DNA of 64,000 bases from Phycisphaeraceae bacterium. Its GTDB lineage: Bacteria; Planctomycetota; Phycisphaerae; Phycisphaerales; Phycisphaeraceae. Position 1 is the first letter of the stretch. Every line of letters starts with the position of its first letter. The translations under genes were made by a program, and so were the position numbers. The notes under the pieces were generated by a model that saw nothing but the letters and a program-made list of their open reading frames with translations, was not told the origin of the DNA and searched no databases. The stretch spans positions 4,416,001 through 4,480,000 of the forward strand of contig OY771506.1 in assembly GCA_963674705.1 (NCBI GenBank), given 5' to 3'. Below, piece by piece: positions 37,222 to 62,784 of the stretch.

Positions 37222-37235
37222 AACAGAGCAGATTA

Positions 37236-37275
37236 CAAAAACCCCGATGTAACGCCAACTCGTTACATCGGGGGT
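37236..37275 (-). terminator. Terminator-like hairpin downstream of the GH2 gene
   Basis: CCCCGATGTAACG-ccaact-CGTTACATCGGGG with an upstream A-run (U-tract on the minus strand). Confidence 0.7.
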
Positions 37276-37326
37276 GAATTATCAATCAAATATGCAGCAT
37301 GGACGAGCCCGTTTGCTCACAATCCA

Positions 37327-40521
<3,195 letters not shown>

Positions 40522-40636
40522 CTATTGTTAACCCACTGGAGGCAACAAGATACCAAAGCAATAGATACATTGCAGTAATCGCCAATGAAATAATATGTTG
40601 CACAACAAAGAAGGCCTAAGTATTGACTTACAAGCA

Positions 40637-41704: not shown

Positions 41705-41721
41705 TATGCTATCTTAATAAC

Positions 41722-42670: not shown

Positions 42671-42826
42671 TTATTGTGATTGCATACGAACCTCTTCTGA
42701 GGTCAATGCTTTGTTTTTGGTAATCGATCGTCTTGACGTCCACCAGATTGTCACTGCATACCCCCACATCAAACCGATCGCCACGATGTATGCAAGAATG
42801 GTGTGCTGGAGTGGATCCATATTCAT
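42671..42826 (-). CDS. ccmD: CcmD-like small membrane protein (51 aa, absent from the ORF track)
   Basis: Manual translation MNMDPLQHTILAYIVAIGLMWGYAVTIWWTSRRSITKNKALTSEEVRMQSQ; ATGA overlap with the ccmC stop; GGAGG RBS; one TM segment plus charged tail. Confidence 0.7.
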   Translation of the reverse strand: MNMDPLQHTILAYIVAIGLMWGYAVTIWWTSRRSITKNKALTSEEVRMQSQ

Positions 42827-43539
42827 GCGACACCTCCAAGCCGACCCCTTACGATACTTTGAGACTCGTGTTGCCCACCGTCTTCAAGTTCTTCATGCTG
42901 AACTCGTTGTAGCAGGAAACGTGCAATAACTAAACCCACAGAGATCATGGTGACCGGTATCATGCAGACAAGGAGCGTCCACTTCATTTCTGTAGTCAGC
43001 GTGATCGATGAGGGATGGATGTCAGGCATCAACTTGACAGACAAGTAAACCAACGGCACATCAACAAAAGCCACGATTCCATATACTGCACTCACCAATG
43101 CCCTACGCTGTCGGGATTCGATTGATGGGCGTATCACAAGATAGGCCACGTACAGTAACCAGAGCACAAGACTGAAGGTTAAGCGCGGGCTCCAGGTCCA
43201 CCATACACCCCATGCACTGTGCCCCCAGATCATACCTGTCAGTAGAACCACACCACACAGTAGTACGGCGACCTTTGCTGACGACACTGCCAGATCGTCC
43301 CATACCTGTCGTCTTTGCCAAAGGTAGCCGACCGATGCGATGAAACAGACCAGGCAAGCCAGGAATGTATTAATGGCCACGGGCAAATGGAGATAGAATA
43401 CTTTTTGCACGATGCCCATCGTTTCTTCGACAGGTGTCCAGAAGAAAATCATGGCGGTCGCGACAGTAAACAACATCGCGGTCACCAGCCAGTATATTGC
43501 CCATATTGTCCCACTTATATGTTTCATCACAAATCCCAA
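42823..43539 (-). CDS. ccmC: Heme exporter/chaperone-loading protein CcmC
   Basis: FYLHLP, Trp-rich WGHSAWGVWWTWSPRLT, DIHP. Confidence 0.9.
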   Translation of the reverse strand: MGFVMKHISGTIWAIYWLVTAMLFTVATAMIFFWTPVEETMGIVQKVFYLHLPVAINTFLACLVCFIASVGYLWQRRQVWDDLAVSSAKVAVLLCGVVLLTGMIWGHSAWGVWWTWSPRLTFSLVLWLLYVAYLVIRPSIESRQRRALVSAVYGIVAFVDVPLVYLSVKLMPDIHPSSITLTTEMKWTLLVCMIPVTMISVGLVIARFLLQRVQHEELEDGGQHESQSIVRGRLGGVA

Positions 43540-44217
43540 TCATGGTTCGAGGATCAACTCAAACACGAGCCAACTCACAGTCAGGTATATCGCATCGAAT
43601 GCAATCAAGACCAAAACGCCAGTGGTATTAAAAGGTTCGTTGTCACCAAATAGGCGCATCATCATTTGAGTGGAAACGATCACTAAAGGCAGAGATACCG
43701 GAAAGATAAGGATAGCCAACAATCCACCCTGCAGGCGCGTCGAACTGACTGCAGCTGAGAACAACGTGCCGACGGCTGCAAATCCTACAAAACCTCCAGC
43801 CATGATCGCGACAAACCCGATCGGCGAAGCGGACAAATCGAAGCCAAACATGATCACCGCAACCGGTGTTACGACCAGCGATAGCGCGACCATCAATATC
43901 AGGTTGCTCAGTAATTTACCTGCATAAATTGCACCGCGATCAACAGGTGCCAACATGAGTCCGGCTAATGCGCCATCATGTCGCTCGACAGCCATGGTTT
44001 TTTCAAAGCACAAGACTCCGCCGAAAAGGTAGGCGACCCATAGGACCGCCGTCGCTGCGATTCCAGACTTGACCTGCTCTGGTCCTAGACCAAGACCGAG
44101 TACTACAACGATCAGCACACCCAGTACAACCACCAGTCCAAGCGTCTGTCGGCTGCGGGCTTCAATACGAAGATCTTTACTACTAATCAGAATGATTTGC
44201 TGGAGCACATGCGTCAT
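43540..44217 (-). CDS. ccmB: Heme exporter permease CcmB
   Basis: KDLRIEARSR, E...G.L.GL.LAP, LL.IL.FPV..P; about six TM segments. Confidence 0.9.
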   Translation of the reverse strand: MTHVLQQIILISSKDLRIEARSRQTLGLVVVLGVLIVVVLGLGLGPEQVKSGIAATAVLWVAYLFGGVLCFEKTMAVERHDGALAGLMLAPVDRGAIYAGKLLSNLILMVALSLVVTPVAVIMFGFDLSASPIGFVAIMAGGFVGFAAVGTLFSAAVSSTRLQGGLLAILIFPVSLPLVIVSTQMMMRLFGDNEPFNTTGVLVLIAFDAIYLTVSWLVFELILEP

Positions 44218-44999
44218 TGCCCGATCACCTCCCGCGTCACCGCTTCCGGATCAGCAAGATGGATCGGCTGGTCACATACAATATGCCCTTGACGCAAGAC
44301 AACCACACGTTTGGCAAGCTCAAGGCTTTGTCTGACATCGTGGTTTGTCAGGATGATGGTTTTACCTTCAGCATTAAGTTCGGCCAGCAGGTTCGTGACA
44401 GACACAACTGAAGGAACATCCAACCCTGAGAACGGTTCATCAGCCAGCATAAGATCAGGGGCATGCATTAAAGCCCGGGCTATGGATAATCTCTGCACCA
44501 TACCTCGGCTGAATGTTTTTACCTGGCTCTTAGCACGCTCCGCTAAATCAACACGTTCGAGCAATTCCATGGCACGCTCTGCGTGTCGTCTGACACCATA
44601 GAGTTTGCCAAAGAAGATAAGGTTCTCGATTGCTGAAAGATCGCGGTATAGCATCGGCTGATGACCGATGACACCGATCCGAGCACGGAGTTTAGGATTC
44701 GGACGATTCGCGGCTTCACCGAAGAGTGATATCCTCCCGGCAGTCGGTTGACTGAGCATCGCGAGTATGTGCAGCAGTGTACTTTTGCCGGCACCATTTG
44801 GTCCAAGCAGCGTCAGATATGAGCCTACCGGCACATTCAAGCTCAGTTTGCGTAGCACCCATCGTTCGTCATACCGCTTACACACTTGATTAAGGCATAC
44901 CGCAAGACCCGCCGATTCACTCTCGGCACGATTAGTTTCTAACACGGGCTCGGCGGTCATGCTGATCATCGGTAGATTAATTAGGTTAACCGGCTGCAC
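44214..44999 (-). CDS. ccmA: ABC ATPase CcmA
   Basis: GPNGAGKST, FSRGM, LADEP; lies in the ccm operon. Confidence 0.85.
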   Translation of the reverse strand: MQPVNLINLPMISMTAEPVLETNRAESESAGLAVCLNQVCKRYDERWVLRKLSLNVPVGSYLTLLGPNGAGKSTLLHILAMLSQPTAGRISLFGEAANRPNPKLRARIGVIGHQPMLYRDLSAIENLIFFGKLYGVRRHAERAMELLERVDLAERAKSQVKTFSRGMVQRLSIARALMHAPDLMLADEPFSGLDVPSVVSVTNLLAELNAEGKTIILTNHDVRQSLELAKRVVVLRQGHIVCDQPIHLADPEAVTREVIGQ

Positions 45000-46047
45000 C
45001 GGTAGGTTCTGGTTTACGGGAGGGTTTCATCATTACAACCAATGCCGCTAGAGCAACCGCTCCCCCACCAATGCCAGCGATCATTTTCATCTGACCCGAT
45101 TGGCCGCTTGCCGGATTTATCAAGGCAGGTGTGGCGGAGGAAGACTGCTCTTCACCGGCCGGCTCTACTTCTATTGTCACACTAATCGGTGTGCCTTTTT
45201 CGAGTTCTTTGCCCATGAACATCCGAAACTGTTTATTCCCGGCCTTGAATGGTTCACCGGCGGTCAGGCCCACCGCTTCAACCTTGGATTCATCGTCGGG
45301 TAGGAATACCATCATCTGCTTGATCGGCGCGTCAACTGTTAATGGCAGCTTGAATACACCATTCACTGGGGCAAGCAGGTAGTTGATGTGTAATTCGTTT
45401 GTACCTGGTATTAGTGGCATACCACTGACAAGTTTGCCATCTTCAACAAGCACATTGTCAGGCGCAAAGCCTCTACCCGGTTGCACGTGGCTGGCGTGCT
45501 GTGGGATCGGCATGGTAATTGTGATCCGTTCGAGCGTTTTCTGTTCAGCTTGGTCCCCCTTTGCAGGTTGTTCAAGGTTTCCGGTTTCGTTAGCGACAAC
45601 TGAATCCCCCGCTTTATCAGCACTTGGAACCTCAACCGGCTTGCCTATGTAACTCTTCTCAGTTGGGTTTACCACCGCCCAAACCTCGGTCACATGCATT
45701 TGATCTTCCATCGGTCGAACAATCAGATGACGAACAGCGACAAACCATTCCGGTTCTACCTCAGTGGTTTCGTAGACAACTTCCGGTGCCTTGGTGACGG
45801 GTGGATGTCCCGCCGGCATCTGGCCGTGGAATCGTTTCACCGGAGGATGGCCTTGAGGCATCTCCGGTTGCCCTTGCGGCGTCTCCTGTTGCCCCCCCGA
45901 CACGGGAGGATGGCCCGGAGGCATTTGTGGAGATTGCTGTGCTTGTTCATCACCCGTGGTTTGCGTCTCTTCAGCGTGCAACGAGCCCGTGGCAAGACAC
46001 AGGGACACGGCGAGAGATAATACGAACAGGAAAGCTATGCGTATCAC
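44986..46047 (-). CDS. Periplasmic membrane-anchored ccm-associated protein with three MPxGHPPV repeats
   Basis: Signal peptide; MPPGHPPV, MPQGHPPV, MPAGHPPV; beta-rich domain; C-terminal TM; overlaps ccmF and ccmA. Confidence 0.7.
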   Translation of the reverse strand: MIRIAFLFVLSLAVSLCLATGSLHAEETQTTGDEQAQQSPQMPPGHPPVSGGQQETPQGQPEMPQGHPPVKRFHGQMPAGHPPVTKAPEVVYETTEVEPEWFVAVRHLIVRPMEDQMHVTEVWAVVNPTEKSYIGKPVEVPSADKAGDSVVANETGNLEQPAKGDQAEQKTLERITITMPIPQHASHVQPGRGFAPDNVLVEDGKLVSGMPLIPGTNELHINYLLAPVNGVFKLPLTVDAPIKQMMVFLPDDESKVEAVGLTAGEPFKAGNKQFRMFMGKELEKGTPISVTIEVEPAGEEQSSSATPALINPASGQSGQMKMIAGIGGGAVALAALVVMMKPSRKPEPTGAAG

Positions 46048-48146
46048 TTGATCGGCTCCGTTTCTTTGTTACTTATATTTGTATTGATGGTTGAACTGAC
46101 TTCGCAGAGTCCTTCGCCCGCTAGCGCCAGGTGCACCGAAGCGGGCTTACGTTTATTCTGCGATGTAGATTCAGGTGAGGACATAGGACCAGGTACGGTC
46201 TGGCTCATCAAACGTGGCATCAGACAGAACACTGCCCCTATTGACATGACAATCCCACCGATCCAGATCCATGCGACCAGTGGATTAATGATCGCCTGTA
46301 TCGCAACGAGTGAACCGTCTTCATTCCAACCGCCGAGTGTCAGGTAAGTATCACGCAACCATGTGGAGTTTAGTGCAACCTGAGCGCTGGGCTGCTCGGA
46401 CTTGTCATAGAATCGCCGTTGCGGACGCAGTTCAACAGGTGTACCACCATTTGAAGGATACAGGTTGACTTGCGCTTCAACCGCGGTGTAGTTGGCCTGA
46501 CGATTTTGATGTAGGCCGGCGAAGGTGATCGTGTACCCACTGATGCTGGCAGATTCACCCGGTGAGAGTCGGAAGTTCTGCTCGACACCAAAGAGGCTGG
46601 ACCCAGCCACACCGATCATGAATAACACCATACCGATATGAACAAACTGCCCACCATACCTCCGATGGTTACCATCGATTACGTGCAGTGTCGCTGTTAC
46701 TGCCGTTTCCTCCTCAATCTTCAAACGCTGCTTGACCGCATTGGCGAGACCGACGCCTACGCTGAGGATCGACACGGTCGCTATGGCCGCACAGGCCAAC
46801 GCCCAGGGATCTGTCAAGCCTAAAGCGGGCGCTATAACCAGCACTATTGCAGCCGTGATTGCAGGGATCAGCAGCCCTTTAGCAAGGGATCGGCCGGCAT
46901 CCTTGCCATAGGTCAATAAGGGCCCAACCGCCATAACAGCTAACAGTGCCAGGCCCAATGGCAGAACAATCTTGTTGTAGAAATTGGGTCCAACAGTCAC
47001 CGGCTCGGGCAAGACCACACTGCTGATCAGCGGGAAGATCGTACCGACCAGTGTCGTCAAAGTGATGATCACTAACAGAACGTTCACCGCAAGGAACGCG
47101 CCTTCCTTAGTAAACATGCCTTCCAGCGACTTCTCGCTCTTAAGCAGCTTATGGCGCCAAATAATCACCGCCATACTGATGACCACGCACAATCCAAGGA
47201 ATACCAGGAAGAACGTCGCGACCAGCGAACCGCCAAAAGCGTGCACAGACTGAACCACACCACTACGTGTCAGGTAAGTGCCGAAGATGCAGAGCAGGAA
47301 AGTCACCGAAATCAGCACCGCGTTCCAGGTCTTAAACATACCACGCTGCTGCTGGATCATGATCGAATGCAATAGTGCGGTGCCGGTCAGCCAGGGCAGG
47401 AGCGATGCATTTTCGACGGGGTCCCACGCCCAGTAGCCGCCCCAGCCCAACTCGATATATGCCCACTTAGCACCTAAGAGGATCCCGATGGTCAGGAACA
47501 GCCAAGACACCATCAGCCATTTACGTGTCGCACCGATCCACTGGTTATCTTTTCGCCCAGCGATCAAAGCCGCCAAGAGCATCGCCCAGGGGATTGTGTA
47601 CGCGGCATAACCGACGAACAGTAACGGCGGGTGGATGATCATGTACGGGTCTTGAAGCAATGGATTAAGACCACGGCCATCTACTGCCCTCACCGGTAAC
47701 TGCTCAAATGGATTGGCTGCGAACAACATCAAGGCCGCAAAGAATCCGCAGACCATTGCCAGTATCCTGATCATCACAGCCTGCTCGATGGTTTCACGCT
47801 TACTGTAGCTATACACTGCAACAGCACTCATACCCGCCAGCAACAGTGTCCAAAGCATCAGGCTGCCTTCCTGGCCGGCCCAGAAAGCAGCGATCTTATA
47901 GCCGGTGGGTAAAGCTTTTTCTGTATAGCTGGCGACGTATGCGTTCTGGAAGTCGCTGTTAATCAAGGCCGACAAGAGCGACCAACAGCTAAGCACAATC
48001 ATCACAACGTAAACATAAATCAACCGTCTTGCCCAGAGCAGCGCACCAGTCAGTCCATCCTTAGCCGCAAGCGCAGAGCAAAAAAACGCTCCAGCAGCTA
48101 TGAGCATCGCCCCAATCAAGCTGATGTAACCCATATCTGCTGTCAT
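46044..48146 (-). CDS. ccmF: Cytochrome c heme lyase CcmF
   Basis: WAGQEGSL, GLNPLLQ, IHPP, WGGYWAWDPVEN, TRSG..SVHAF. Confidence 0.95.
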   Translation of the reverse strand: MTADMGYISLIGAMLIAAGAFFCSALAAKDGLTGALLWARRLIYVYVVMIVLSCWSLLSALINSDFQNAYVASYTEKALPTGYKIAAFWAGQEGSLMLWTLLLAGMSAVAVYSYSKRETIEQAVMIRILAMVCGFFAALMLFAANPFEQLPVRAVDGRGLNPLLQDPYMIIHPPLLFVGYAAYTIPWAMLLAALIAGRKDNQWIGATRKWLMVSWLFLTIGILLGAKWAYIELGWGGYWAWDPVENASLLPWLTGTALLHSIMIQQQRGMFKTWNAVLISVTFLLCIFGTYLTRSGVVQSVHAFGGSLVATFFLVFLGLCVVISMAVIIWRHKLLKSEKSLEGMFTKEGAFLAVNVLLVIITLTTLVGTIFPLISSVVLPEPVTVGPNFYNKIVLPLGLALLAVMAVGPLLTYGKDAGRSLAKGLLIPAITAAIVLVIAPALGLTDPWALACAAIATVSILSVGVGLANAVKQRLKIEEETAVTATLHVIDGNHRRYGGQFVHIGMVLFMIGVAGSSLFGVEQNFRLSPGESASISGYTITFAGLHQNRQANYTAVEAQVNLYPSNGGTPVELRPQRRFYDKSEQPSAQVALNSTWLRDTYLTLGGWNEDGSLVAIQAIINPLVAWIWIGGIVMSIGAVFCLMPRLMSQTVPGPMSSPESTSQNKRKPASVHLALAGEGLCEVSSTINTNISNKETEPIK

Positions 48147-48559
48147 TGGATCGCCTCAATACGCTTTTCGTGTTCTTCTGACTGGTATTTGCTGGCACAT
48201 TTGGTCATCAGCGTGTCAGCCTGAAAGACACCGACTTCATCGAGTTTGCCCTCGACCATCACCTCACAACCAGGTTTGAAGGTATCCGGAACGACGCCTT
48301 CAAAATGGACCGGCACGCTATTGCTGGTGCCGCGCAGATCAAATGACGCCGTAAGCATGGCCGGTTGAACCTCAACTTTGTCTTCGTCCACCAGGCCATA
48401 CAACCGGACACGACGATGCTGGTAGCTGTCGTCCAGGACGAAGTCATCTACGTGCATGTAGTAGACCCAGCCGCTCTTGACTCCCGCGACGGCCAGGTAA
48501 CTTACCGAGGCGACCAATACCAGCCCCACAATCAACATTTTGATACGAACGTGTGTCAT
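48143..48559 (-). CDS. ccmE: Heme chaperone CcmE, Cys-type (CxxxY)
   Basis: N-terminal TM, VRLYG, VPDTFK, VEG, LMTKCASKY. Confidence 0.9.
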   Translation of the reverse strand: MTHVRIKMLIVGLVLVASVSYLAVAGVKSGWVYYMHVDDFVLDDSYQHRRVRLYGLVDEDKVEVQPAMLTASFDLRGTSNSVPVHFEGVVPDTFKPGCEVMVEGKLDEVGVFQADTLMTKCASKYQSEEHEKRIEAIQ

Positions 48560-48595
48560 AGCCCGTCCCTTTACACAAAGTTCCGGGATACATAT

Positions 48596-48612
48596 CACAA
48601 AGTCGATGCCAA
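48596..48612 (-). promoter_or_regulatory. Degenerate sigma54-like promoter for the ccm operon
   Basis: TTGGCATCGACTTTGTG: GG-N10-GT instead of GC. Confidence 0.3.
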
Positions 48613-48908: not shown

Positions 48909-48924
48909 TGGTACAGCTCTTGCA
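48909..48924 (+). promoter_or_regulatory. Putative sigma54 (-24/-12) promoter for the OmcE-like gene
   Basis: TGGTACAGCTCTTGCA: GG-N10-GC. Confidence 0.6.
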
Positions 48925-49227
48925 TTAGGTACCGGAGAAGGTCTCTATTTAAAGCGAGAAACACATGTCCACCATTCAGGCACAATCAGGTCCCATCGGG
49001 ACACCATCACTTGAAAGGGCGCCACCGGGTGGGCGGGATTGGATTGAGAGACGCCGGTCGCCTTGAGGGGGGGCCGGCCCAGTGATCTGTTCTTTGAATC
49101 GTGAATTTACCCAGTTTGAAAAATAAGACGCCCCGGCCGAAACGCCTACACGCATGACACGGCAAGCGAATCGAACCGAGGCGACAGCCACTTAGGCCAA
49201 AAACATCATATGTAAGGAGAGGCCTCA

Positions 49228-49833
49228 ATGAAAACAAAACTACTCGTCGGAGCAATCGCGGTGGCGGGTCTTGCGTTCGGGATGAACGGCACATCATATG
49301 CCGCCCACTCGGACCATGGCTGCGTTAACTGCCATATGCCCCACAAGTCCGGCGACCCAACTGATCCCGATGCCTACGGTGTGCCCCTGTGGAGCACCGC
49401 CCAGACAGCGGATGGATTGCCGACCTTCGATCTGTACACCAGCGCCAGCTTAGACGCGACAGACGTCAGCCAGCCCAGTGGCCCCAGCAAGCTATGCCTG
49501 GGTTGCCACGACGGCAGCTACGCCGTCTTCAGCTACATCCCCGACTCCGAAGCCATCTTCGAGACCGGCGATCTGGCCAGCTCGCACCCGATTTCGTTCA
49601 CCTATGACGACGCACTGGCAACTGCTGACGGTGGTCTGAAGCAACCCAGCACCGTAACCTCGGGCCTGGGCGGCACCATCGCCGAAGACCTGCTCGACTC
49701 ACAGGGCAAGATGCAGTGCACCAGCTGCCATGATGTTCACACCAGCGGACACGGCGATTACTTGTTGAAGTATGACATCGACGCCGCCTCCGAACATGAA
49801 GCCCTGCTCTGCCGGGCTTGTCACAACAAATAA
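49228..49833 (+). CDS. Tetraheme c cytochrome, OmcE-like (candidate nanowire subunit)
   Basis: Signal peptide; CVNCH, CLGCH, CTSCH, CRACH; PLW, LY.S, SKLCLGCHDG, HPISF; strong RBS AAGGAGAGG. Confidence 0.85.
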   Translation: MKTKLLVGAIAVAGLAFGMNGTSYAAHSDHGCVNCHMPHKSGDPTDPDAYGVPLWSTAQTADGLPTFDLYTSASLDATDVSQPSGPSKLCLGCHDGSYAVFSYIPDSEAIFETGDLASSHPISFTYDDALATADGGLKQPSTVTSGLGGTIAEDLLDSQGKMQCTSCHDVHTSGHGDYLLKYDIDAASEHEALLCRACHNK

Positions 49834-49869: not shown

Positions 49870-49908
49870 AAACGGGGCCCGTTCACTTGGCGGGCCCCGT
49901 TTGTTTTT
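49870..49908 (+). terminator. Intrinsic (possibly bidirectional) terminator
   Basis: AAACGGGGCCCG-ttcacttgg-CGGGCCCCGTTT followed by GTTTTT. Confidence 0.85.
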
Positions 49909-49941
49909 AATCTTGCAGACTAGCGTGTATAAGTGCTTCGC

Positions 49942-51036
49942 TTACGGATTCTTCATCTTCCCAAATGCGTAAACGCCGATCTTATTGTCGCCGAATTGAT
50001 TCGCCAGGAATATCAAGTATTCCGGCTCAAATCCCGGGGCCATATATTCCCTGTATAAATCAATACTGGAGCGGTCGATTGTAATCCCCGCAGGCAATCC
50101 CATCCTATCCGGACCGTCTGTAGCGCCGCCAAAAAAGAGCAGTGTTTGGCCTTCAGGGTTGAATAGCTGAACGATTTCCCATTGGGCGTCGGCAATATAG
50201 ATCACGCCATCAGGATCGATCGCAATGCCCTTGGGACGAGCGAAGTAGCCCGGGCGGTCGCCAGGCTCACCGATAAGTTTAAGTAGATTCCCTTCAGGAT
50301 TGAATACCTTGACTGTGCTGAGTTCTGAGTCGACAACGTAGATATTCCCGTCCGGTCCAATAGCAAGATTCGTTGGATAGCGAAGCTGATCCGGCTCGCG
50401 CCCTTTGCTGGAGAAGCTACGAAGCAACTCGCCGCTGGATTTAGACCAGACTTCGATCTTGCACTGCTTGATGTTACAGACATACAACTGATCACCGTCA
50501 ATAGCTACATCAATCGGCACACAACGGACAGGATCACCCATTGCACGGACAAAGCGGTCATTGGCATCAAACACCAGAATCTGTGACTTCTGAGGATGAG
50601 TATCACAGATATACTTCGTGCCGTCCTTGTCGATAGTGATATTGACCGGGCCAAAGAAGCTGTCTTCCTGACCCAAGCGTGAATAGGTCTTGTTCGCCAA
50701 GTCGTAGATATGCACGCAATGTAACGGGATGTCGCAGACATACAGCTTCTGATTGTAGACGGCCAGACCATAAGGCCCGTGCATCTTGTGCGGTGCTTCG
50801 GTCTGCTGCTTATCACCCACAACAAAATCGGCAAAAGAGCTCTTTTTAATCATCCAGCGCTCGGCGTCGCTGAAACTGGTCAGGAACTGCAAACGAGGTT
50901 CAGAAGGCGGCGGCGGGTAGAAGATGGCGTTAGTCTCGACAGTAACCTCCTGCGGAGCTGAGGTACAGCCGCCGACACCTGATAAGACCCACAGCGTGAG
51001 TGAGACAATTAATAACATTCGGGTCCATGCGTTCAT
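49942..51036 (-). CDS. NHL-repeat beta-propeller lipoprotein
   Basis: VGGC lipobox-like; YPPPPSEPRLQFL; repeated P..IAID.DG.IY..D and FARPKGIA. Confidence 0.85.
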   Translation of the reverse strand: MNAWTRMLLIVSLTLWVLSGVGGCTSAPQEVTVETNAIFYPPPPSEPRLQFLTSFSDAERWMIKKSSFADFVVGDKQQTEAPHKMHGPYGLAVYNQKLYVCDIPLHCVHIYDLANKTYSRLGQEDSFFGPVNITIDKDGTKYICDTHPQKSQILVFDANDRFVRAMGDPVRCVPIDVAIDGDQLYVCNIKQCKIEVWSKSSGELLRSFSSKGREPDQLRYPTNLAIGPDGNIYVVDSELSTVKVFNPEGNLLKLIGEPGDRPGYFARPKGIAIDPDGVIYIADAQWEIVQLFNPEGQTLLFFGGATDGPDRMGLPAGITIDRSSIDLYREYMAPGFEPEYLIFLANQFGDNKIGVYAFGKMKNP

Positions 51037-51107: not shown

Positions 51108-51123
51108 TGCAACTGTTGTTCCA
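51108..51123 (-). promoter_or_regulatory. Putative sigma54 promoter for the NHL gene
   Basis: Minus strand TGGAACAACAGTTGCA: GG-N10-GC. Confidence 0.55.
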
Positions 51124-51280: not shown

Positions 51281-51296
51281 CGGCACAGACTTTGCC
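51281..51296 (+). promoter_or_regulatory. Putative sigma54 promoter for the decaheme-porin operon
   Basis: CGGCACAGACTTTGCC: GG-N10-GC. Confidence 0.55.
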
Positions 51297-51321
51297 TTAT
51301 ATCGGTGGAGAGGCTGCGCTT

Positions 51322-52485
51322 ATGACGTTTGGCAAACTGAGATACAACAAAGCGGGCTGCGACCATGCCTATGTCGGTGGTGTCCGCTGTGTGATGTGCT
51401 CATTTTGCAGAATCATGCCCATTCTCGTAGTCGTGCTGTGCTTCGTTCTAATCTTCCTGACAGGCTGCCAGGACGAAGTACAGCGATACAAGACGCTGAG
51501 TTTCTTCTTCGATGGCGTGCCAGTGCCGGAGGGTTACGATCCACCCCATAAAACCGAGGAACTGATCGGGCCTTGGGGTGTAGCCATCCCGGCAGACAGT
51601 GACCTTGGCAGGCAGATGCTGGCCGAACGAGATGCCTGGCCAGACCAACAGTCAACACAAGTGACGGAAGAAGTTTTCTTCTATCACACACCGTATCAGA
51701 AACGAGACTGCTTCGGATGCCACAATGAAGAGCAGGGATATACCCCACCGACTACCGGGGCCGAACTTTGCAGCAAGTGCCACGAATCCTACATCGAGTT
51801 TGAGCAAGACGACTGGGTTCATGGCCCCGTCGTGGTTGGTAAGTGTGGTTGGTGCCACGAGGCCCACAAATCTGAATACCCCTCGCTGACCAAAGAAGCC
51901 CAGCCCGATCTTTGCATGACCTGCCACGATCCGTACTTCATTGAAAGCGATCAATTCCATGCCGGCCTTGAGGATAAGCAGTGCTCACGGTGCCATGATC
52001 CGCATGCATCAGGCAACCGTCTTCTTCTTGCTGATTCCCGTACGTACGAGCGTCGTCAAGCGACCTTTGCATTGTTGCCTTCTCCCCACGCAGGCTGGCC
52101 CAAGGACCTGTGCAGTAAATGCCACATCCCCGAGCAGTCCAATGCCTTGACTGAAGATGTCGATTCAACCTGCATTTCGTGCCACGATGAATACACAGCG
52201 GATAACACCGAATCGACTCATATTCATGAAGCGGTTACACAAGGCAAATGCACAGCCTGCCACATGCCACACCGCTCAACAATGCCGAAACTGATCCGCG
52301 CTGATGCGGAAAAGATGTGTTATCAGTGTCACAAACCAGAAGAATTACAGAACGGTAAACACCCAAATGTCACACGTGTGGATTGCCTGATCTGCCATAA
52401 CGGTCACAGTTCTCCTCGGCCTTCGCTGCTCAAACAAGATATTCCTGGCGGCGCCCAACAGGCAAAGGCAGGTGTTGAGCCATGA
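51322..52485 (+). CDS. Decaheme c cytochrome, probable lipoprotein
   Basis: LTGC lipobox, FFDGVP, 10 CxxCH counted; GGAGAGG before ATG 51322. Confidence 0.9.
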   Translation: MTFGKLRYNKAGCDHAYVGGVRCVMCSFCRIMPILVVVLCFVLIFLTGCQDEVQRYKTLSFFFDGVPVPEGYDPPHKTEELIGPWGVAIPADSDLGRQMLAERDAWPDQQSTQVTEEVFFYHTPYQKRDCFGCHNEEQGYTPPTTGAELCSKCHESYIEFEQDDWVHGPVVVGKCGWCHEAHKSEYPSLTKEAQPDLCMTCHDPYFIESDQFHAGLEDKQCSRCHDPHASGNRLLLADSRTYERRQATFALLPSPHAGWPKDLCSKCHIPEQSNALTEDVDSTCISCHDEYTADNTESTHIHEAVTQGKCTACHMPHRSTMPKLIRADAEKMCYQCHKPEELQNGKHPNVTRVDCLICHNGHSSPRPSLLKQDIPGGAQQAKAGVEP

Positions 52486-54485
52486 GCCTGCATCTGCCGC
52501 GATCAGTTGGTGTCTTGGTGCTTCTGATGTTTCCGTCGATAACGGCGCATGCTCAGTCGACCGCACCAATCCAGCCCATGAACATCACCGGGTTTGAAGG
52601 CGACCTGTTATTCACCGGACACTACCGGATCGACGAAGAAACCAGCGGCAATGGTCAGGTGACCGAAGAAAAAGATATATTCTTCCGTGAAGAGCTTGGT
52701 TTGAGATCCAGTGGTTACTTTTATCACCCCAATCTGGTCGATTGGAGCGCCGGTCTCAGACTCGGCCTGACACAGCAACGTATCGACATTAATAACGAAA
52801 GCTACGACTCCGACGGCGACATTTTCGGATACAACCTCAATGCGCTATTCCTGAAGGAAAAGCCCGTCTCTGTACGTGCCTATGCCAGAAAAACAGACGA
52901 CTTCATAGATCGCAGCTTTGCCCGGCAGATCGAGTTAAAAACGCGCGTCGAGGGCGCCGAGGTTTACATCAAAGGGCAGACACCCATCACACTTCTGTTT
53001 GAACAAAGCGACATCTATGAAGAATCAGACATAAGAACCGACGATGAGACTTCAGACTTGTTCCGCTTCCAGATGATAGATGCACGCAATCCGGATCTGT
53101 TTTCCGAACTGGTTTATGAACATGAGGATGTTGATAAGACAGCAACGTTCTTCCTGGACGGTGAACCCCCGGTGATCCAGGACCTGCCCGACCGTCGAGA
53201 TGAAGTCAGGCTTACAAACAGATGGCGGTTCCCGGATGGCGACCTGACGCACTCTTTATATGGCCATTTACGCCTGCTACGACGACGTGGGGCATTCAAC
53301 AACGATCTTGCCAGCTTCAACCAACGCCTGGATCTACAGCACAGTGATACACTCACTACGTTCTACCGGATTCAAGCATTAACTGATGATACGGACACTC
53401 AGAAAGAAGACCTGCTGGAAGGCGAAGTCGGCTTTATCAAGCAGTACTATCAGAGTTTGTCCGTGACCGGCCGTGTCTTTGCCACGGATAACAAGTTCGA
53501 CAGCAGTGAAGAGCAGAGCTACGGTACCTTCTTTGACTTCGACTATCGTAAAAACACCCCTGTGGGGCGATATAACGCAAGCCTAGGGGTCGGAACGGAT
53601 TTTCAAGACCAGAGTTCAGATTCCGGGTTTAGGAGTATACGAGATGAAGCCGTCGTTCTGGCTGGCGTGACGCCGCAGCAGTTGAGTGAGCCAAACGTCG
53701 TTCCTGGATCGGTTGTGGTTACCGATGTTAATAATGCGGTCACCTTTATTGAAGGCGTGGATTACACGCTTCAGCAATTCGGCCAATTTACTGAGATCGT
53801 GCGATTGGTTACCGGGTCGATCGTCGATGGTCAGCTCGTACTGGTAGATTACGAGGTTGAAGCGGCCGAAAACGCCAACATTCAGACTAACAGGATCCAT
53901 CTTCGTCAACGTCTTCAGATTCAAGACACTCCGTTTGCTTTACTCACTGAATACCGTTTGCGTGACGAAAAACTGCTTTCTGGAGATGATCCCGGGAATC
54001 TTGATCGGCAGGAAATAATCATGTTCGGCTTGGAGTACCATGAAGACCCGTTTACGATTGTCGGCGAATACGAACAGCGCGACCAGCGCCTCTCACCATC
54101 TTCCGTCTCGTATCTTGTTCGAGGCACCTATGACCAGGTATTCAACGACACGATGACCACGACTATCGGCGCTGATTATGAAAACCTGGATTACACCGAT
54201 GCCGAAGACTTCGACCTGGAACCGGGCCGGGACTTTTTAGATCGCTACGGCGTATTTGCTCATACAACAGTCAAATTGCGGCGGGACCTGCTTACACGAT
54301 TCGAAGCCAGCTACAACGATATGAAAGGCAGAGACAACAATAAGCTGGCACGTATCGGAGCATCGTTGAACTATCGGCGTGGGAATCTTAACTTCACGAT
54401 CAGCGGTTACCATGAGGAGTACGAACAGGAAGATGAAACCGGTGATAATGATGTAATCCGCTTCACGCTCAGGCGTTCCTTTTAA
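52482..54485 (+). CDS. Large outer-membrane beta-barrel (porin of a porin-cytochrome module)
   Basis: Signal peptide; alternating amphipathic strands; C-terminal FTLRRSF; coupled to the decaheme gene by ATGA overlap. Confidence 0.8.
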   Translation: MSLHLPRSVGVLVLLMFPSITAHAQSTAPIQPMNITGFEGDLLFTGHYRIDEETSGNGQVTEEKDIFFREELGLRSSGYFYHPNLVDWSAGLRLGLTQQRIDINNESYDSDGDIFGYNLNALFLKEKPVSVRAYARKTDDFIDRSFARQIELKTRVEGAEVYIKGQTPITLLFEQSDIYEESDIRTDDETSDLFRFQMIDARNPDLFSELVYEHEDVDKTATFFLDGEPPVIQDLPDRRDEVRLTNRWRFPDGDLTHSLYGHLRLLRRRGAFNNDLASFNQRLDLQHSDTLTTFYRIQALTDDTDTQKEDLLEGEVGFIKQYYQSLSVTGRVFATDNKFDSSEEQSYGTFFDFDYRKNTPVGRYNASLGVGTDFQDQSSDSGFRSIRDEAVVLAGVTPQQLSEPNVVPGSVVVTDVNNAVTFIEGVDYTLQQFGQFTEIVRLVTGSIVDGQLVLVDYEVEAAENANIQTNRIHLRQRLQIQDTPFALLTEYRLRDEKLLSGDDPGNLDRQEIIMFGLEYHEDPFTIVGEYEQRDQRLSPSSVSYLVRGTYDQVFNDTMTTTIGADYENLDYTDAEDFDLEPGRDFLDRYGVFAHTTVKLRRDLLTRFEASYNDMKGRDNNKLARIGASLNYRRGNLNFTISGYHEEYEQEDETGDNDVIRFTLRRSF

Positions 54486-54496
54486 AGGTGTCATGC

Positions 54497-55579
54497 ATGT
54501 TCAATGCCACACAATCAACAACCTGCCTTAGGGCGATCACAGCCATATTTCTTGTGTTGTCGATTGTCGGATGTGCTACACCGGACAAATCGGACCAAGC
54601 CTATCATCCGGTCTGGCCGCCGCCACCGGCACAACCACGCGTCCGCCACATCATGGACATCCACTCACCCGACGACCTGCGTAAGCCGTCCGCATTGGAT
54701 AACTTGGGCAGGCTTATCACAGGCGGTGGTAAACAGATCCTGACACGGCCAAATAGTGCCGCCGTTGTCGGTAATAATCTGCTCTGTGTAACGGACCAGG
54801 AATGGCAGGGTGTTCATCTGATGCGTATGAATTCTTCCGGCTCAAAGTTTGTATCACTGGCCACAGACAAACTCCACTTCGTCTCTCCTGTTGGTATCGC
54901 AGAGTTTGGGAAACTAATAGCGGTATCCGATAGTGCCCTGAACAACGTCTACCTACTGACACAGGATGGCAAACCTGCCGGGCAGATTGAGGTTCAGGAT
55001 GGTTTCGCCCGACCGACTGGAATGATGTACGACACTGATAGGGATGAGTTGTATGTTGTCGATACGCTTGCCAATCAGGTTTACGTGTTCGATAGGCATG
55101 GGGATTTGGTTAGGAAGTTCGGATCACAGGGTATCGCTCCCGGGCAATTCAATTACCCAACGCATATTTTTGTTGACAATAGAGGCCGTGTGTTTATCAC
55201 TGACTCGATGAACTTCCGCGTGCAGGTTTTCGATCGCGAGGGTAACTACCTGTTCGATATCGGTGCACACGGCGACGCCAGTGGTTTTCTGGCAGTACCG
55301 AAGGGTGTGGGTGTGGATTCAGTTGGCCACATCTATATCGTCGATTCCTACTTTTCAAACGTACAGGTCTTTGATGAGAAAGGCACATTCTTACTTAGCA
55401 TCGGGGGGCCCGGCAAAGGGATCGGCCAATTCCAGGTACCTTCCGGTCTGCATGTTGACAAAAACAACCGTATCTATATCTGCGACAGCTATAACAGGCG
55501 GGTCCAGGTTCTCGAGTACCTGGATGAAGTAAGCGAAGGAGTTGCGAATCATGAAAACGATTCAGCCACTGATCATTAG
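54497..55579 (+). CDS. NHL-repeat beta-propeller lipoprotein
   Basis: IVGC lipobox; WPPPPAQPRV; GQFNYPTHI, TDSMNFRVQVF, PKGVGVDS. Confidence 0.85.
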   Translation: MFNATQSTTCLRAITAIFLVLSIVGCATPDKSDQAYHPVWPPPPAQPRVRHIMDIHSPDDLRKPSALDNLGRLITGGGKQILTRPNSAAVVGNNLLCVTDQEWQGVHLMRMNSSGSKFVSLATDKLHFVSPVGIAEFGKLIAVSDSALNNVYLLTQDGKPAGQIEVQDGFARPTGMMYDTDRDELYVVDTLANQVYVFDRHGDLVRKFGSQGIAPGQFNYPTHIFVDNRGRVFITDSMNFRVQVFDREGNYLFDIGAHGDASGFLAVPKGVGVDSVGHIYIVDSYFSNVQVFDEKGTFLLSIGGPGKGIGQFQVPSGLHVDKNNRIYICDSYNRRVQVLEYLDEVSEGVANHENDSATDH

Positions 55580-57230
55580 CGTTATAGGTCTTGGCATCTG
55601 CCTGTTGTTGAGTGTCGATGGTATCGCACAGAGTCAGACATCAGATGTCGCATCGACCAAGCACAATCTTTCTTCAACCGGACCAGGTACCGTGCGTGTT
55701 GAAGGCTCATCAGGTGTCTGCAGGTATTGCCACACGCCTCACAGTTCTAATCCAATCGCACCGCTCTGGAACCGGGATGATCCGGGCACCTACTACCAGA
55801 CATATGAAAGTTCGACACTTGTAGCAGACGTCGGGCAACCCAGCGGTTCGTCGCGTTTGTGTTTGAGTTGTCACGATGGCACCATCGCGCTGACGCAAAC
55901 CTACAATCCCAATAATGCTCCAGGTGGCAGTACGGTTTTCATCACATCCAGCGACAGGGGATACATCGGCACAGACCTCAGCGACGATCACCCGATCAGT
56001 TTCGTATACGATTCAGGGCTTGCCGTCGCGAAAGGTCAGTTGCGAGACCCCTCATCGTTACCGCCAGAGTTGCCGCTGGACCACAACAACCATGTGCAGT
56101 GCACAACCTGTCACGAACCGCACGATGATTCTTTCGGCAACTTCCTGAGAATGGACAACACGGAGTCTCGCATGTGCCTGAGTTGTCACGAGCCGGACAA
56201 CTGGGCCAGTTCGGCACACGCCAATTCTGGTGCATCGCTGGCGGGCTCTGATGCCATCTGGGACAACATATCCGCATCAACTGTACGTGAAGCGGGTTGT
56301 GAGAGCTGCCACCGTCCCCACACCGCCGGTGGCCGAGAACGCTTACTTCGACGTGAAGCCGAAGAAGACAACTGCATGGACTGCCACGATGGTACAGTCG
56401 CCCGCGTCGATCTAAGTCCTTCACTTAATGCTCTTAGCACGCATCCTGTCAGATTGACGACGGGGGTTCATGATCCGACCGAGTTGCCTTCGACCATGAG
56501 CGAGCATGTCGAATGTGCAGACTGCCATAATCCTCACCAAGCCAGCCGCGGCGGCCCGAGACAGGCGCCCTATATTCAGCCTGCAATGGCTGGCGCAATC
56601 GGTGTGATGAATGCGGGTCTCACTCCGGGCGAAGCACAATACGAATACCAGGTGTGCTTCAAGTGCCACGGCTCACGCAATGTCAGCCAGCCGACTGTGG
56701 ACCGTATCTATGACAACAGCGATCTGGCCGATGCTTTTGACCCACCGAACGACAGTTATCATCCTGTACAGACACAAGGTAAAAACCCGAATGTTCCCAG
56801 CCTTGTACAGAAGTACAAGACGACCAGCATGATCTATTGCAGCGACTGCCACGGCAGCGATGATCCTTCCGTGAGAGGACCCCATGGCTCACGATTCTCC
56901 CCGCTGCTGACGCATAATTACAACACACGCAATAACACCACGGAAAGCCCGCAAGCCTATGCGCTTTGCTACGAATGCCATAACCGAGCAAGTATCCTGA
57001 GTAATGAGAGCTTCGCAAAACATAAGGAACATCTCGATTCAAACGCATCCTGCGCTACATGCCACGATCCGCACGGCGTCAGAGAGAATACTCACCTGAT
57101 TAACTTCGATCGCACAACGGTCAGTGCCGCGAGTAACGGCGTCGGGCCGATATTCCGAGATAGTGGTGTGTTTGCAGGCTCTTGCACATTGTCTTGCCAC
57201 GGTGTAGACCACATTGACAAAAGCTACTAG
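55551..57230 (+). CDS. Multiheme c cytochrome (11 CxxCH + 1 CxxxCH) with N-terminal OmcE-like domain
   Basis: Signal peptide; TKHNLS..CRYCHTPH..PLWNR..CLSCHDG..GTDLSDDHPISF..CTTCHEPH..FLR..CLSCH, then 8 more heme motifs. Confidence 0.9.
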   Translation: MKTIQPLIISVIGLGICLLLSVDGIAQSQTSDVASTKHNLSSTGPGTVRVEGSSGVCRYCHTPHSSNPIAPLWNRDDPGTYYQTYESSTLVADVGQPSGSSRLCLSCHDGTIALTQTYNPNNAPGGSTVFITSSDRGYIGTDLSDDHPISFVYDSGLAVAKGQLRDPSSLPPELPLDHNNHVQCTTCHEPHDDSFGNFLRMDNTESRMCLSCHEPDNWASSAHANSGASLAGSDAIWDNISASTVREAGCESCHRPHTAGGRERLLRREAEEDNCMDCHDGTVARVDLSPSLNALSTHPVRLTTGVHDPTELPSTMSEHVECADCHNPHQASRGGPRQAPYIQPAMAGAIGVMNAGLTPGEAQYEYQVCFKCHGSRNVSQPTVDRIYDNSDLADAFDPPNDSYHPVQTQGKNPNVPSLVQKYKTTSMIYCSDCHGSDDPSVRGPHGSRFSPLLTHNYNTRNNTTESPQAYALCYECHNRASILSNESFAKHKEHLDSNASCATCHDPHGVRENTHLINFDRTTVSAASNGVGPIFRDSGVFAGSCTLSCHGVDHIDKSY

Positions 57231-57314: not shown

Positions 57315-58334
57315 TCATTGCCTGGCAGATCGATGCTCATAAGCATTGCGATATGCTACTGCCGCCTGCTCCCATTCCTGGTCGTGTTCATGGACGCGTC
57401 CGAGATAGTAGTAAGCCTCAGAAGGATCAGGATTCACGTTCAAGGCAGCATCTAACGCAACTTTCGCCTCTTCGTAGCGATCTAACTCAACCAAGGCGCG
57501 TCCGCGGAGCGTCTGAACACGCCACGTCGGCGCCTTGCCTTCAGGTATTGTGTCAAGCTGAGTGATGGCTTGAGTTGGATTTTGTTTAATCACATACACA
57601 CGGGCCAACATCAGGATCAATTGCGTATCCTTGGGATCAATCGTTAATCCTTGTTGTAATTCTTGCAACGCAAGGTCGGTTTGCCCCTTTTCAAGCAACC
57701 GCTCCGCCATGTGTAAATGTCTTGAAGCGACACTGTCCGGCGTACTGGCTATTGTTCCATTTGATTTTAGCCGTTCTTCCAAGGCAGTTTTATCAATAAC
57801 GCCGTTCGCGTAATCGACATAGGCCTGCAGATCCTTGCCGTACGATGCTCGCAATCCTGGCATGTGTGCAACTCGGTTACCTGCCGGATCAATGACTTCG
57901 GTCGTTGGCCATACCCGTACAGATAATTGCCCTGATGCGTCGTAATCCTGGTCAATCACAACTGGACCCGCCCACTGGCCGGAATCCTTGATACGTTTGG
58001 CGCCCTCAGCGGCATCTTGGCCACTGACGACAAGGATAGGCTGGATCAAGTCTTTATGTGCAGGATCAGCTAAGAGCACATTGAGTTGGTTCATCGCAGT
58101 GTCACTGCGCTCCTGGTCGGCTTTGACAAACAGGATGATGCTGGTCTTGCCTTCGACAGGCACTCCGATTTGATCGCCTTCCGCATCCGTCACACGCCAT
58201 TCGATCTGGGCCACTGCTATCTGATCTGTAGATTGTGACATTGCGATATTGCCATGCATGGCAAGAGATAGTCCCAAGGCAGCAGTACAAAGTGTTTTGA
58301 GTCCGTACTTCATCATATGATTGTGCTGTTTCAT
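57315..58334 (-). CDS. Secreted thioredoxin-like (no CxxC) + TPR protein
   Basis: Signal peptide; VWPTTEVID cis-Pro strand; C-terminal TPR helices (AYYYLGRV). Confidence 0.7.
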   Translation of the reverse strand: MKQHNHMMKYGLKTLCTAALGLSLAMHGNIAMSQSTDQIAVAQIEWRVTDAEGDQIGVPVEGKTSIILFVKADQERSDTAMNQLNVLLADPAHKDLIQPILVVSGQDAAEGAKRIKDSGQWAGPVVIDQDYDASGQLSVRVWPTTEVIDPAGNRVAHMPGLRASYGKDLQAYVDYANGVIDKTALEERLKSNGTIASTPDSVASRHLHMAERLLEKGQTDLALQELQQGLTIDPKDTQLILMLARVYVIKQNPTQAITQLDTIPEGKAPTWRVQTLRGRALVELDRYEEAKVALDAALNVNPDPSEAYYYLGRVHEHDQEWEQAAVAYRNAYEHRSARQ

Positions 58335-58345
58335 GGCATGGCTTT

Positions 58346-59686
58346 CTATTGCTGTGCGGTGTAATCGACAGGATTCTCACGGTCATATGCTTTGTGCTGA
58401 TGGCAACCGGGCGTACACGATCCGCCGGTATCGGTCTGCTCGTAATTGATCGGTAACTCCCAGTTACCATATGGAACGGTTTCTCGCAGATGCAGAGCCA
58501 ACGTGCTGGCGTGAACACTATGGCACGCCCTGCAGCTCCGTCCGCGTGGATCCTTATTCACATGCATATAATGCATGTTGGTATCACCATTACGGAATCC
58601 GGTCAATCCCTTTGCTTCTGGTGTTAGCACCAGTTGCTCGTCATGACATTCAAAACAAAGCTTGTAACTGTTAATATCAAACGGCTGGTAGAACGTTTCG
58701 GGGTATTCTTCGGTGAGTAGGTTTGAGAATTCTGAACCGTGAACATTATGACACCCGCCACAACTGCCCTCGGCAACCGGGCCGTGTTTAATGAGGTTCG
58801 GATTTGTAACTTCCGTCACAGCGGCGACATCCCGCCCATCGATTGCTGTAACCGGCTCGTTGTGACAGGTCATGCAGATGTCAACGGGTTTATCTTTCAT
58901 CAGGTTTGCCAAATCGCCGCCGTGTGGCGTATGGCAATTCCCACACGCCCGGTCCTGCGTAACTGCTGTGTGCTGATACTTAGCAGTGGTAACCGCTTCT
59001 TTTACCTGTTCATGGCATGATGTGCACAATTCATTTTGAGATTCACGGATAAACATCGGGAAGTTTGATCCGTGCGCATCATGGCAATTCATGCAATCCT
59101 CTTTAACAGGCTCATGCACAAACGTAACTTTGCTAAGCTGATCATTCATCTCCGTATGACATGTAACACACAACTCCCGGCCGGTCTCGACCAGAAGCTT
59201 AGGCTTTGTAGAAGCGTGTGCCTGGTGACACATCCCGCAGGCGCCGGCCGCAACCGGGCCATGAATAAACTCCATATTCGCTGTCACATCCTGGTGGCAT
59301 GATGCACACAACTCATTCATCGTTGGCTTCTTCAGAGAGTTACTATCAAATCCACCATGCGGATCATGGCATCCGGTACAGTCGCGTGTGACCAGTGGTT
59401 CGTGCAATGTTGCCCCCTCTGGCACCTCGATGACGTGGCAGAATGTACAGGTTTCAGCCTTTTCTCTTGCCGGCTTATACGTGTGTGTCTTAGCATCAAC
59501 CAACGTATGACAAGCATCACAGGCATTTACATTCACAGGTCCATGCAGAACCTTGTGATCTTTTACATTCGCATGGCAATCCGCGGTGACACAACTCTCG
59601 GGCTTGATCTCTGTCGTCGGTTTATCGAGCCCCATACAAAGGGTTGTGCATAGCACAAGCATGATAATTGTCTGGTAGTACTTCAT
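58346..59686 (-). CDS. Multiheme c cytochrome (13 CxxCH + CX4CH + CX3CH)
   Basis: Motifs counted; repeated H.P....C..CH..H units; signal peptide. Confidence 0.9.
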   Translation of the reverse strand: MKYYQTIIMLVLCTTLCMGLDKPTTEIKPESCVTADCHANVKDHKVLHGPVNVNACDACHTLVDAKTHTYKPAREKAETCTFCHVIEVPEGATLHEPLVTRDCTGCHDPHGGFDSNSLKKPTMNELCASCHQDVTANMEFIHGPVAAGACGMCHQAHASTKPKLLVETGRELCVTCHTEMNDQLSKVTFVHEPVKEDCMNCHDAHGSNFPMFIRESQNELCTSCHEQVKEAVTTAKYQHTAVTQDRACGNCHTPHGGDLANLMKDKPVDICMTCHNEPVTAIDGRDVAAVTEVTNPNLIKHGPVAEGSCGGCHNVHGSEFSNLLTEEYPETFYQPFDINSYKLCFECHDEQLVLTPEAKGLTGFRNGDTNMHYMHVNKDPRGRSCRACHSVHASTLALHLRETVPYGNWELPINYEQTDTGGSCTPGCHQHKAYDRENPVDYTAQQ

Positions 59687-62774: not shown

Positions 62775-62784
62775 GACTGGTCTC

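Follow-up and report, generated by a model that had tools for sequence, protein, structure and literature searches.

The DNA analyzed here, a stretch of 64,000 nucleotides from a Phycisphaeraceae bacterium (contig OY771506.1), hereafter called the window, encodes a tetraheme cytochrome c that, on the combined support of its sequence, predicted fold, and gene neighborhood, belongs to the OmcE family. Because this OmcE relative sits within the complete set of genes that accompanies OmcE, it is likely that the planctomycete makes a conductive filament of protein to carry electrons across the cell envelope. The gene family itself is already known; what is added here is the phylum, a candidate for the filament anchor, and a probable link to the uet gene cluster.

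All bacterial cytochrome nanowires with structures solved to date are from Desulfuromonadia, and the secretion, start, and end of these filaments have been posed as open questions (PMC13712944). If the reading given here is correct, the system extends to a planctomycete that degrades sugars and has respiratory genes of the oxygen type as well as anaerobic ones. The locus would then offer a conserved anchor candidate (a dodecaheme protein with an OmcE domain) and a histidine, H39, as the candidate for filament growth, each of which is testable.

A planctomycete member of the OmcE family

The 201-amino-acid (aa) tetraheme ORF contains four CxxCH motifs, in the contexts CVNCHMPH (C32–H39), LCLGCHDG (C90–H94), CTSCHDVH (C164–H171), and LCRACHNK-stop (C195–H199), as well as the motifs PLW (residues 53–55), FDLYTSAS, and HPISF (H120). 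The motif order, running from CxxCHxPH to an LCxxCH at the extreme C-terminus, is that described in an earlier sequence-only reading of the gene at 49228–49833. With CRACHNK-stop as its end, the protein has a tail of only two residues after heme 4. The same two-residue tail occurred in all 116 aligned tetraheme sequences, and a tail of ≤2 residues in 103 of 104 short tetraheme homologs from related loci. At the N-terminus, a Sec signal peptide without a lipobox was predicted (residues 1–25), and no recognizable secretion tag was found in the protein. The cleavage site after SYA was judged by eye and would make H27 the second residue of the mature protein. In the alignment of 116 sequences, the free histidines H27, H120, and H171 were invariant and H39 was 99% conserved, which together with the four CxxCH histidines gives a complete set of eight heme ligands. 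The histidine three residues past the first CxxCH (the donor position) was present in 99 of the 104 short homologs.

The OmcE family is defined by four CxxCH motifs and four distal histidines, and its solved members are Geobacter sulfurreducens OmcE (7TFS) and the OmcE nanowire bundle of Desulfuromonas soudanensis (9YUQ) (PMC13712944). When the tetraheme sequence was searched against the PDB with phmmer, these were the two leading matches (E = 1.8e-8 for 7TFS and 1.8e-6 for 9YUQ; next match, E = 0.17), and a profile built from the 116 sequences matched them at E = 1e-12 and 1.4e-13, respectively. The homology covers the full mature length at 26–28% identity to OmcE, and both solved proteins likewise stop two residues past the final CxxCH. 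The AlphaFold2 (AF2) model, built without hemes, had a pLDDT of 87.3, and 7TFS was its sole Foldseek match at E ≤ 0.001 (E = 4.7e-6, TM 0.55); VIA aligned 154 residues of the model with 7TFS at Z 10.6 and an rmsd of 2.9. The likeness to OmcE that the sequence-only reading had noted in the motifs recurs in the phmmer and profile matches, the Foldseek match, and the gene neighborhood described below. An OmcS-type hexaheme identity was rejected: the ORF has only four CxxCH motifs, and the tetraheme profile matched 6EF8 at E = 0.16 over 29 positions.

The gene cluster

The smallest OmcE clusters comprise OmcE, two multiheme cytochromes, two beta-propeller lipoproteins, and a large beta-barrel (PMC13712944), and the tetraheme gene is one of six genes in the window that match this published minimal cluster, the barrel being a predicted one. 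The features of the locus are as follows (positions in the window, strand, description).

42823..48598, minus: ccmE, ccmF, a 353-aa gene, a ccmA-like ABC ATPase gene, ccmB, and ccmC, divergent from the tetraheme gene
48909..48924, plus: sigma54 (−24/−12) promoter site of the tetraheme gene, TGGTACAGCTCTTGCA, one mismatch to TGGCAC-N5-TTGC
48937..49227, plus: predicted 5′ leader, about 290 nt long; conserved blocks resembling hairpins at 49004–49098 and 49122–49199, ribosome-binding site (RBS) at 49214–49219
49228..49833, plus: tetraheme cytochrome c gene (201 aa), OmcE family, candidate nanowire subunit
49870..49910, plus: intrinsic terminator (A-run, stem, T-run) between two convergent genes
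49942..51036, minus: NHL beta-propeller lipoprotein 1 (NHL1), lipobox VGGC
51109..51123, minus: sigma54-like site upstream of the NHL1 gene, one mismatch
51281..51295, plus: sigma54-like site upstream of the decaheme–barrel–NHL2–dodecaheme run, one mismatch
51292..52485, plus: 10-heme lipoprotein cytochrome of two pentaheme units, lipobox LTGC
52482..54485, plus: predicted outer-membrane beta-barrel (667 aa), signal peptide, C-terminal ...FTLRRSF
54488..55579, plus: NHL beta-propeller lipoprotein 2 (NHL2), lipobox IVGC
55542..57230, plus: 562-aa cytochrome with 11 CxxCH and one CxxxCH (12-heme protein) and an N-terminal OmcE domain, candidate anchor or nucleator
57315..64000, minus: TPR protein, two 13-CxxCH cytochromes, a NapC-like cytochrome, and a 10-heme/cytochrome b fusion, predicted quinol-to-periplasm relay

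The sequence-only reading had called the tetraheme gene stand-alone. This fits it as a transcription unit but not as a gene, as it is part of the six-gene OmcE-type cluster, which itself lies within a large cytochrome cluster. Eight of the 16 proteins with ≥3 CxxCH motifs in the genome, according to the ORF calling of this analysis, are encoded at this locus. Lipoproteins and the barrel were called with the lipobox and beta-signal rules. The true start of the 10-heme cytochrome probably lies downstream of position 51292. The 667-aa barrel-like protein ends in Phe and had no Pfam match; in the ESM Atlas, its look-alikes at 0.99 were unnamed, and the nearest named clusters were porin/beta-barrel clusters at 0.85–0.88, which is a lead only. 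In the relay, the NapC-like cytochrome has 11 hemes and is membrane-anchored, and the 10-heme/cytochrome b fusion (779 aa, extending past the window end) has what we take to be the layout of the CbcL quinol oxidases.

Several other genes in and around the locus were also recorded. The TPR protein (57315–58334, minus strand) has a weak N-terminal ResA/thioredoxin-like match (E = 7e-4), is conserved adjoining the periplasmic cytochromes, and is possibly a maturation helper. The 353-aa protein between ccmF and ccmA (44986–46047, minus strand) has no Pfam or NCBIfam match, contains His/Pro-rich repeats (PPGHPPV), is conserved in planctomycete ccm operons, and possibly replaces CcmH/CcmI. Upstream, at 35038–42588 (minus strand), are carbohydrate-use genes. 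Among their products are a pectate lyase (PF09492) and a prepilin-type N-methylation protein (PF07963); two others, of 727 aa and 1062 aa, resemble a sugar phosphorylase and a beta-galactosidase when judged by eye. Elsewhere, the genome encodes other respiratory proteins: two of the heme-copper oxidase family, an NrfAH-like system, and a member of the octaheme tetrathionate reductase family. A separate 22-heme cytochrome of 1124 aa with a TPR tail adjoins a fused HmcB/HmcC-like (Fe-S plus NrfD-type) gene at a second electron-transfer module (L200:5662-11287).

Expression signals of the tetraheme gene

The sequence-only reading had also credited the gene with a strong RBS, its own sigma54-like promoter, a strong terminator, and C-ending codons, all of which were confirmed. 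The RBS AAGGAG lies 8 nt ahead of the ATG. Scored against the sigma54 consensus TGGCAC-N5-TTGC, sites at the level of the one at 48909–48924 numbered 204 on both strands of the whole genome, which is equivalent to 0.012 per 630 bp. When upstream regions were scored across related loci (≤1 mismatch to TGGYAY-N5-TTGC), such a site was present in 24 of 29 planctomycete loci, where shuffled sequences predicted 0.8, and in two of 40 other loci; as the loci are related to one another, these counts carry no statistical test. The low genome background and the recurrence in planctomycete loci indicate that the site upstream of the tetraheme gene is not due to chance. No sigma70 promoter was found on the plus strand upstream of the gene. 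RpoN is encoded in the same genome (rpoN), and a gene for an NtrC-type activator lies about 5.7 kb past the window end. The region just past the window (L198:3237-8655; genome positions 4481236–4486657 of G000) encodes a histidine kinase, a second kinase-like protein, and this type of sigma54 activator, together with an ABC-type substrate-binding protein and a member of the nitrous oxide-stimulated promoter family. The regulators there likely control the sigma54 sites of the cluster.

The blocks and hairpins of the leader were common to seven sequences, with a CGCCYCGG...CCGARGCG stem directly before the RBS, and their consensus structure contained 42 pairs, seven with two-sided changes. Profile searches with the leader found matches only in genus-level relatives, and the leader occurs in a single copy in the genome. 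A riboswitch reading was rejected on the basis of no Rfam match at E ≤ 1 and a folding z of −0.22 for the whole leader, no better than shuffles. The leader is possibly a stabilizing or regulatory RNA. Downstream of the gene, the terminator has a stem of 14 pairs (49870–49902) followed by a T-run, with a stability of −27.1 kcal/mol (z = −5.2; none of 200 shuffles was equally stable), and it probably acts bidirectionally.

In its use of C-ending codons, the tetraheme gene is at the 91st percentile among the genome ORFs. The codon adaptation index (CAI) had been proposed as a check, and here the outcome was divided: the value of 0.56, the 84th percentile of 3905 ORFs, exceeds that of all 11 cluster neighbors (6th–38th percentiles) but is below the ribosomal median (0.68; reference set of 25 ORFs, a few of them probably spurious). 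The individual promoter and terminator and a codon bias that is moderate but above that of the neighbors are consistent with a subunit made in excess.

A candidate anchor for the filament

The 12-heme protein carries an OmcE domain of its own. Positions 9–206 of its family profile matched both solved OmcE structures (E = 2.3e-44 for 7TFS and 2.2e-36 for 9YUQ). Among 51 such fusion proteins, the histidine of the donor position (xxH after the first motif; H67 in the protein studied here) was present in all 51, and that after the fifth motif in 50. The gene is co-oriented with the barrel gene and nearly abuts it. The AF2 model of the protein was of low confidence (mean pLDDT 50.8) and was left unused.

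An anchor would be expected to donate a ligand to the open heme of the filament while its own heme is closed (PMC13712944). The 12-heme protein, in which the donor histidine is retained and heme 4 of the OmcE domain precedes further hemes, would cap the heme-4 end of the filament. As it could donate to the open heme 4 while closing its own, it is a candidate for the anchor, and a membrane-side anchor or nucleator is its most likely role. The membrane-side end is slightly favored over the tip because the gene lies in one block with the barrel gene. A stricter argument for the cap, that such a protein has one histidine more than its hemes require, was dropped because the 16 invariant free histidines, set against 12 hemes, single out no one donor.

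Genes for 6–7-heme cytochromes were observed near the OmcE-like gene in seven other loci (L048:8310-9392, L050:8716-9654, L090:7770-8801, L106:8929-9714, L077:5150-6109, L032:3208-4038, and L036:3104-4297). Their products have extra N-terminal hemes, a first motif without the donor histidine, and a C-terminal CxxCH, and often have Tyr in place of the histidine after the fifth motif. By these sequence features, they are candidates for the opposite (tip) cap. No gene of this kind was found in the genome studied here, which gave two profile matches.

Distribution of the cluster

The tetraheme profile matched eight of 10 same-genus genomes and 13 of the 41 genomes in the set of relatives (own genome included); across the phylum, at least 13 of 401 genomes matched, again including its own, with at most seven candidates scored per genome. 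The best 80 of 236 loci were titled Planctomycetota, Bacteroidota, Ignavibacteria, Calditrichota, Acidobacteriota, Verrucomicrobia, Actinomycetota, Gammaproteobacteria, and others. Barrel and propeller genes were both present in 58 of these 80 loci, and all six parts in 46; in the 49 loci of ≥15 kb among them, the corresponding numbers were 45 and 40. In these counts, any non-OmcE ORF with 5–13 CxxCH motifs was taken as the second cytochrome, and a few genomes contributed two loci. More than one OmcE-like gene was present in 16 of 79 loci. Tandem tetraheme copies, two to five per locus, were seen in L049, L051, L053, L054, L055, L101, and L116, and some of them lacked the donor histidine or had a fifth heme.

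Planctomycetales bacterium ZRK34, presumably a cultured organism, has tetraheme, barrel, propeller, and dodecaheme genes (L116). In its genome (G041; L211 and L212), the system is split over two chromosomal sites, with two tetraheme genes beside ccm and a propeller–decaheme–barrel–propeller–dodecaheme block elsewhere. A dodecaheme homolog (P0144) was found in Lutibacter profundi, and the 12-heme profile matched 13 of 61 genomes in an order-level gammaproteobacterial sample. Among the control genomes, no match came from Geobacter (0/14).

Same-genus genomes (L028, L029, L032, and L033) also contained another, more divergent form of the cluster, in which the genes are co-oriented, a pentaheme cytochrome replaces the decaheme, and the barrel identity is about 24–26%. 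In some relatives, this form is found at the same site linked to ccm, and both types coexist in two genomes, suggesting module replacement.

Proposed mechanism and alternative explanations

In the mechanism that we propose, the tetraheme cytochrome would be exported, receive its hemes from the neighboring Ccm system, and polymerize head to tail. OmcE filaments are held together by a histidine of one subunit that ligates a heme of the next (PMC9473688, PMC13712944). The tetraheme cytochrome appears to be composed of two doubled-CXXCH repeats (H-CxxCH-xx-H...CxxCH), in which H27 would ligate heme 1, H171 heme 2, and H120 heme 3, so that the C-terminal heme 4 would be left unsatisfied. H39 of the next subunit would then complete heme 4 and drive chain growth. 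Because the repeat pattern would leave heme 4 unpartnered and H39 spare, H39 is more likely than H27 to be the inter-subunit ligand. The earlier suggestion of a ligand from the N-terminal HSDH segment, which begins with H27, is thus not favored; only 41% of homologs retain the other histidine in it, H30. Secretion and holding of the filament may fall to the barrel and both propeller lipoproteins, as has been proposed for Geobacter. Quinol would pass electrons to the cytochrome b fusion, from which they would travel by way of the NapC-like cytochrome, the periplasmic 13-CxxCH cytochromes, and the barrel complex to the filament, and from there to an insoluble acceptor or a partner cell under low oxygen. 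The flow is most likely outward, given that the relay is linked to quinol and that the gene context is that of a heterotroph (pectate lyase, NrfAH-like, octaheme reductase, and heme-copper oxidases).

It is reasonably likely that the tetraheme cytochrome polymerizes into an extracellular heme filament. It might instead be a non-filamentous or short-oligomer part of a porin–cytochrome conduit of the uet/Mtr kind, docked on the 12-heme protein or the barrel at the cell surface and lengthening the chain of hemes by a single unit or a few. The Tenderiales uet cluster has been interpreted mainly in this way, with a polymer left possible (bioRxiv 10.1101/2022.05.06.490989). Because the donor histidine is missing in some OmcE-like paralogs (five of 104), a polymer cannot be deduced from the fold by itself, and the codon bias of the gene is also moderate enough to suit a conduit. 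For paralogs of a nanowire cytochrome in general, those that form wires have been described as not distinguishable by sequence alone, and of four OmcS-like proteins, only one is known to form wires (PMC12977616). However, both solved relatives are filaments, and one donor histidine combined with an unsatisfied C-terminal heme in a single protein would allow unlimited self-addition. Moreover, the gene's own promoter and terminator accord with a subunit required in surplus, as does the presence of several OmcE-like genes in 16 of the 79 loci. We therefore regard a conduit as rather unlikely.

That the propeller and barrel genes almost always adjoin the tetraheme gene, that the locus already has two 13-CxxCH periplasmic candidates, and that the structural match is an extracellular filament make it very improbable that the protein is a soluble periplasmic electron carrier for the many periplasmic cytochromes of the locus, even though its plain Sec-type signal peptide, with no lipobox or recognizable secretion tag, and the adjoining ccm genes would suit such a role. 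A filament that forms but is used chiefly for adhesion, as a biofilm scaffold, or to store electrons, and less for respiration, would accord with the biofilm roles proposed for OmcE bundles (PMC13712944), with the reported dispensability of OmcE for current in G. sulfurreducens, and with the other respiratory outlets in this genome (heme-copper oxidases, NrfAH-like, and the octaheme tetrathionate reductase family), but the predicted continuous chain of the locus, from the quinol-linked cytochrome b fusion to the barrel, leaves this scarcely credible.

Comparison with known systems

The system was compared with those described in the literature cited here and in further reports (bioRxiv 10.64898/2026.05.27.727921, 10.1101/2022.03.26.485925, and 10.1101/695007; PMC13748539, PMC12954529, PMC13194489, PMC11492766, PMC8322314, PMC13264449, PMC10732223, and PMC13386937). 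Like the OmcE nanowires (7TFS and 9YUQ), the planctomycete protein has four CxxCH motifs and four distal histidines in the same order, the same predicted fold, and a two-residue C-terminal tail, and its six-gene cluster, with a predicted barrel, has the same content (PMC13712944). However, the first histidine and first CxxCH are separated by five residues here and by 20 in OmcE, and with about 15 residues fewer in this segment, the interface could differ. The flanking maturation genes are ccm rather than the resB/ccsB of the OmcE clusters, and there is no glycosylation block in the cluster. The host phylum, Planctomycetota, is absent from the five phyla named in the main text of PMC13712944. 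Whereas one companion cytochrome in the planctomycete cluster carries an OmcE domain, that text reports no candidate for the tip within OmcE operons, and the anchor candidate that it does report lies outside the cluster.

Other systems linked to extracellular electron transfer (EET) similarly combine multiheme cytochromes with beta-propellers, such as OmcS/osc, DFE_0448-0465 of D. ferrophilus, and Occ of Ca. Dechloromonas occultata. OmcS, however, is a hexaheme cytochrome (tetraheme profile match, E = 0.16), OccP is an undecaheme cytochrome of 922 aa versus the 562 aa of the 12-heme protein, and the D. ferrophilus DFE proteins were likened by description only. General porin–cytochrome clusters have been noted in Planctomycetota MAGs, and OmcE-like cytochromes in clusters of peat Acidobacteriota and Verrucomicrobiota. 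In the literature searched, we found no OmcE nanowire cluster assigned to Planctomycetota, although the homolog lists of PMC13712944 may include this phylum, and no EET system combining NHL-repeat proteins, multiheme cytochromes, and a porin in Planctomycetota or Bacteroidetes.

The uet cluster of Candidatus Tenderia electrophaga and the Tenderiales encodes a tetraheme cytochrome (UetA), a barrel (UetC), two NHL proteins (UetH/I), and an undecaheme cytochrome (UetJ); its authors raise polymer formation as a possibility, with OmcE unnamed in the available text (bioRxiv 10.1101/2022.05.06.490989). The planctomycete cluster resembles it in gene content, with a tetraheme and an 11-CxxCH cytochrome, a predicted large beta-barrel, and a pair of NHL proteins. 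In contrast, it contains no triheme c7, cupredoxin, or prolyl isomerase genes of the uet type, and its gene context is heterotrophic, whereas uet has been linked to electron uptake in autotrophs. In two of the eight gammaproteobacterial loci read (L220 and L226), homologs of the tetraheme and 11-CxxCH cytochromes occur with two triheme genes, as in uet; the tetraheme gene of L226 was seen in part only, and the barrel-sized ORF of L220 had no BLAST match. None of the gammaproteobacterial homologs among the matches listed (120 of 7766) was labeled Tenderia. Judged by gene content, there is a good likelihood that uet and the OmcE cluster constitute one family. The full scenario, in which heterotrophic planctomycetes build OmcE-type nanowires, the 12-heme protein anchors or nucleates them at the barrel, and the uet cluster of Tenderiales and iron oxidizers is the same machine, used for export and uptake across phyla, is put forward more tentatively, as a possibility short of an even chance. 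If true, one conserved nanowire system would be present in Planctomycetota, Bacteroidota, Gammaproteobacteria, and other phyla, serving both electron export and electron uptake.
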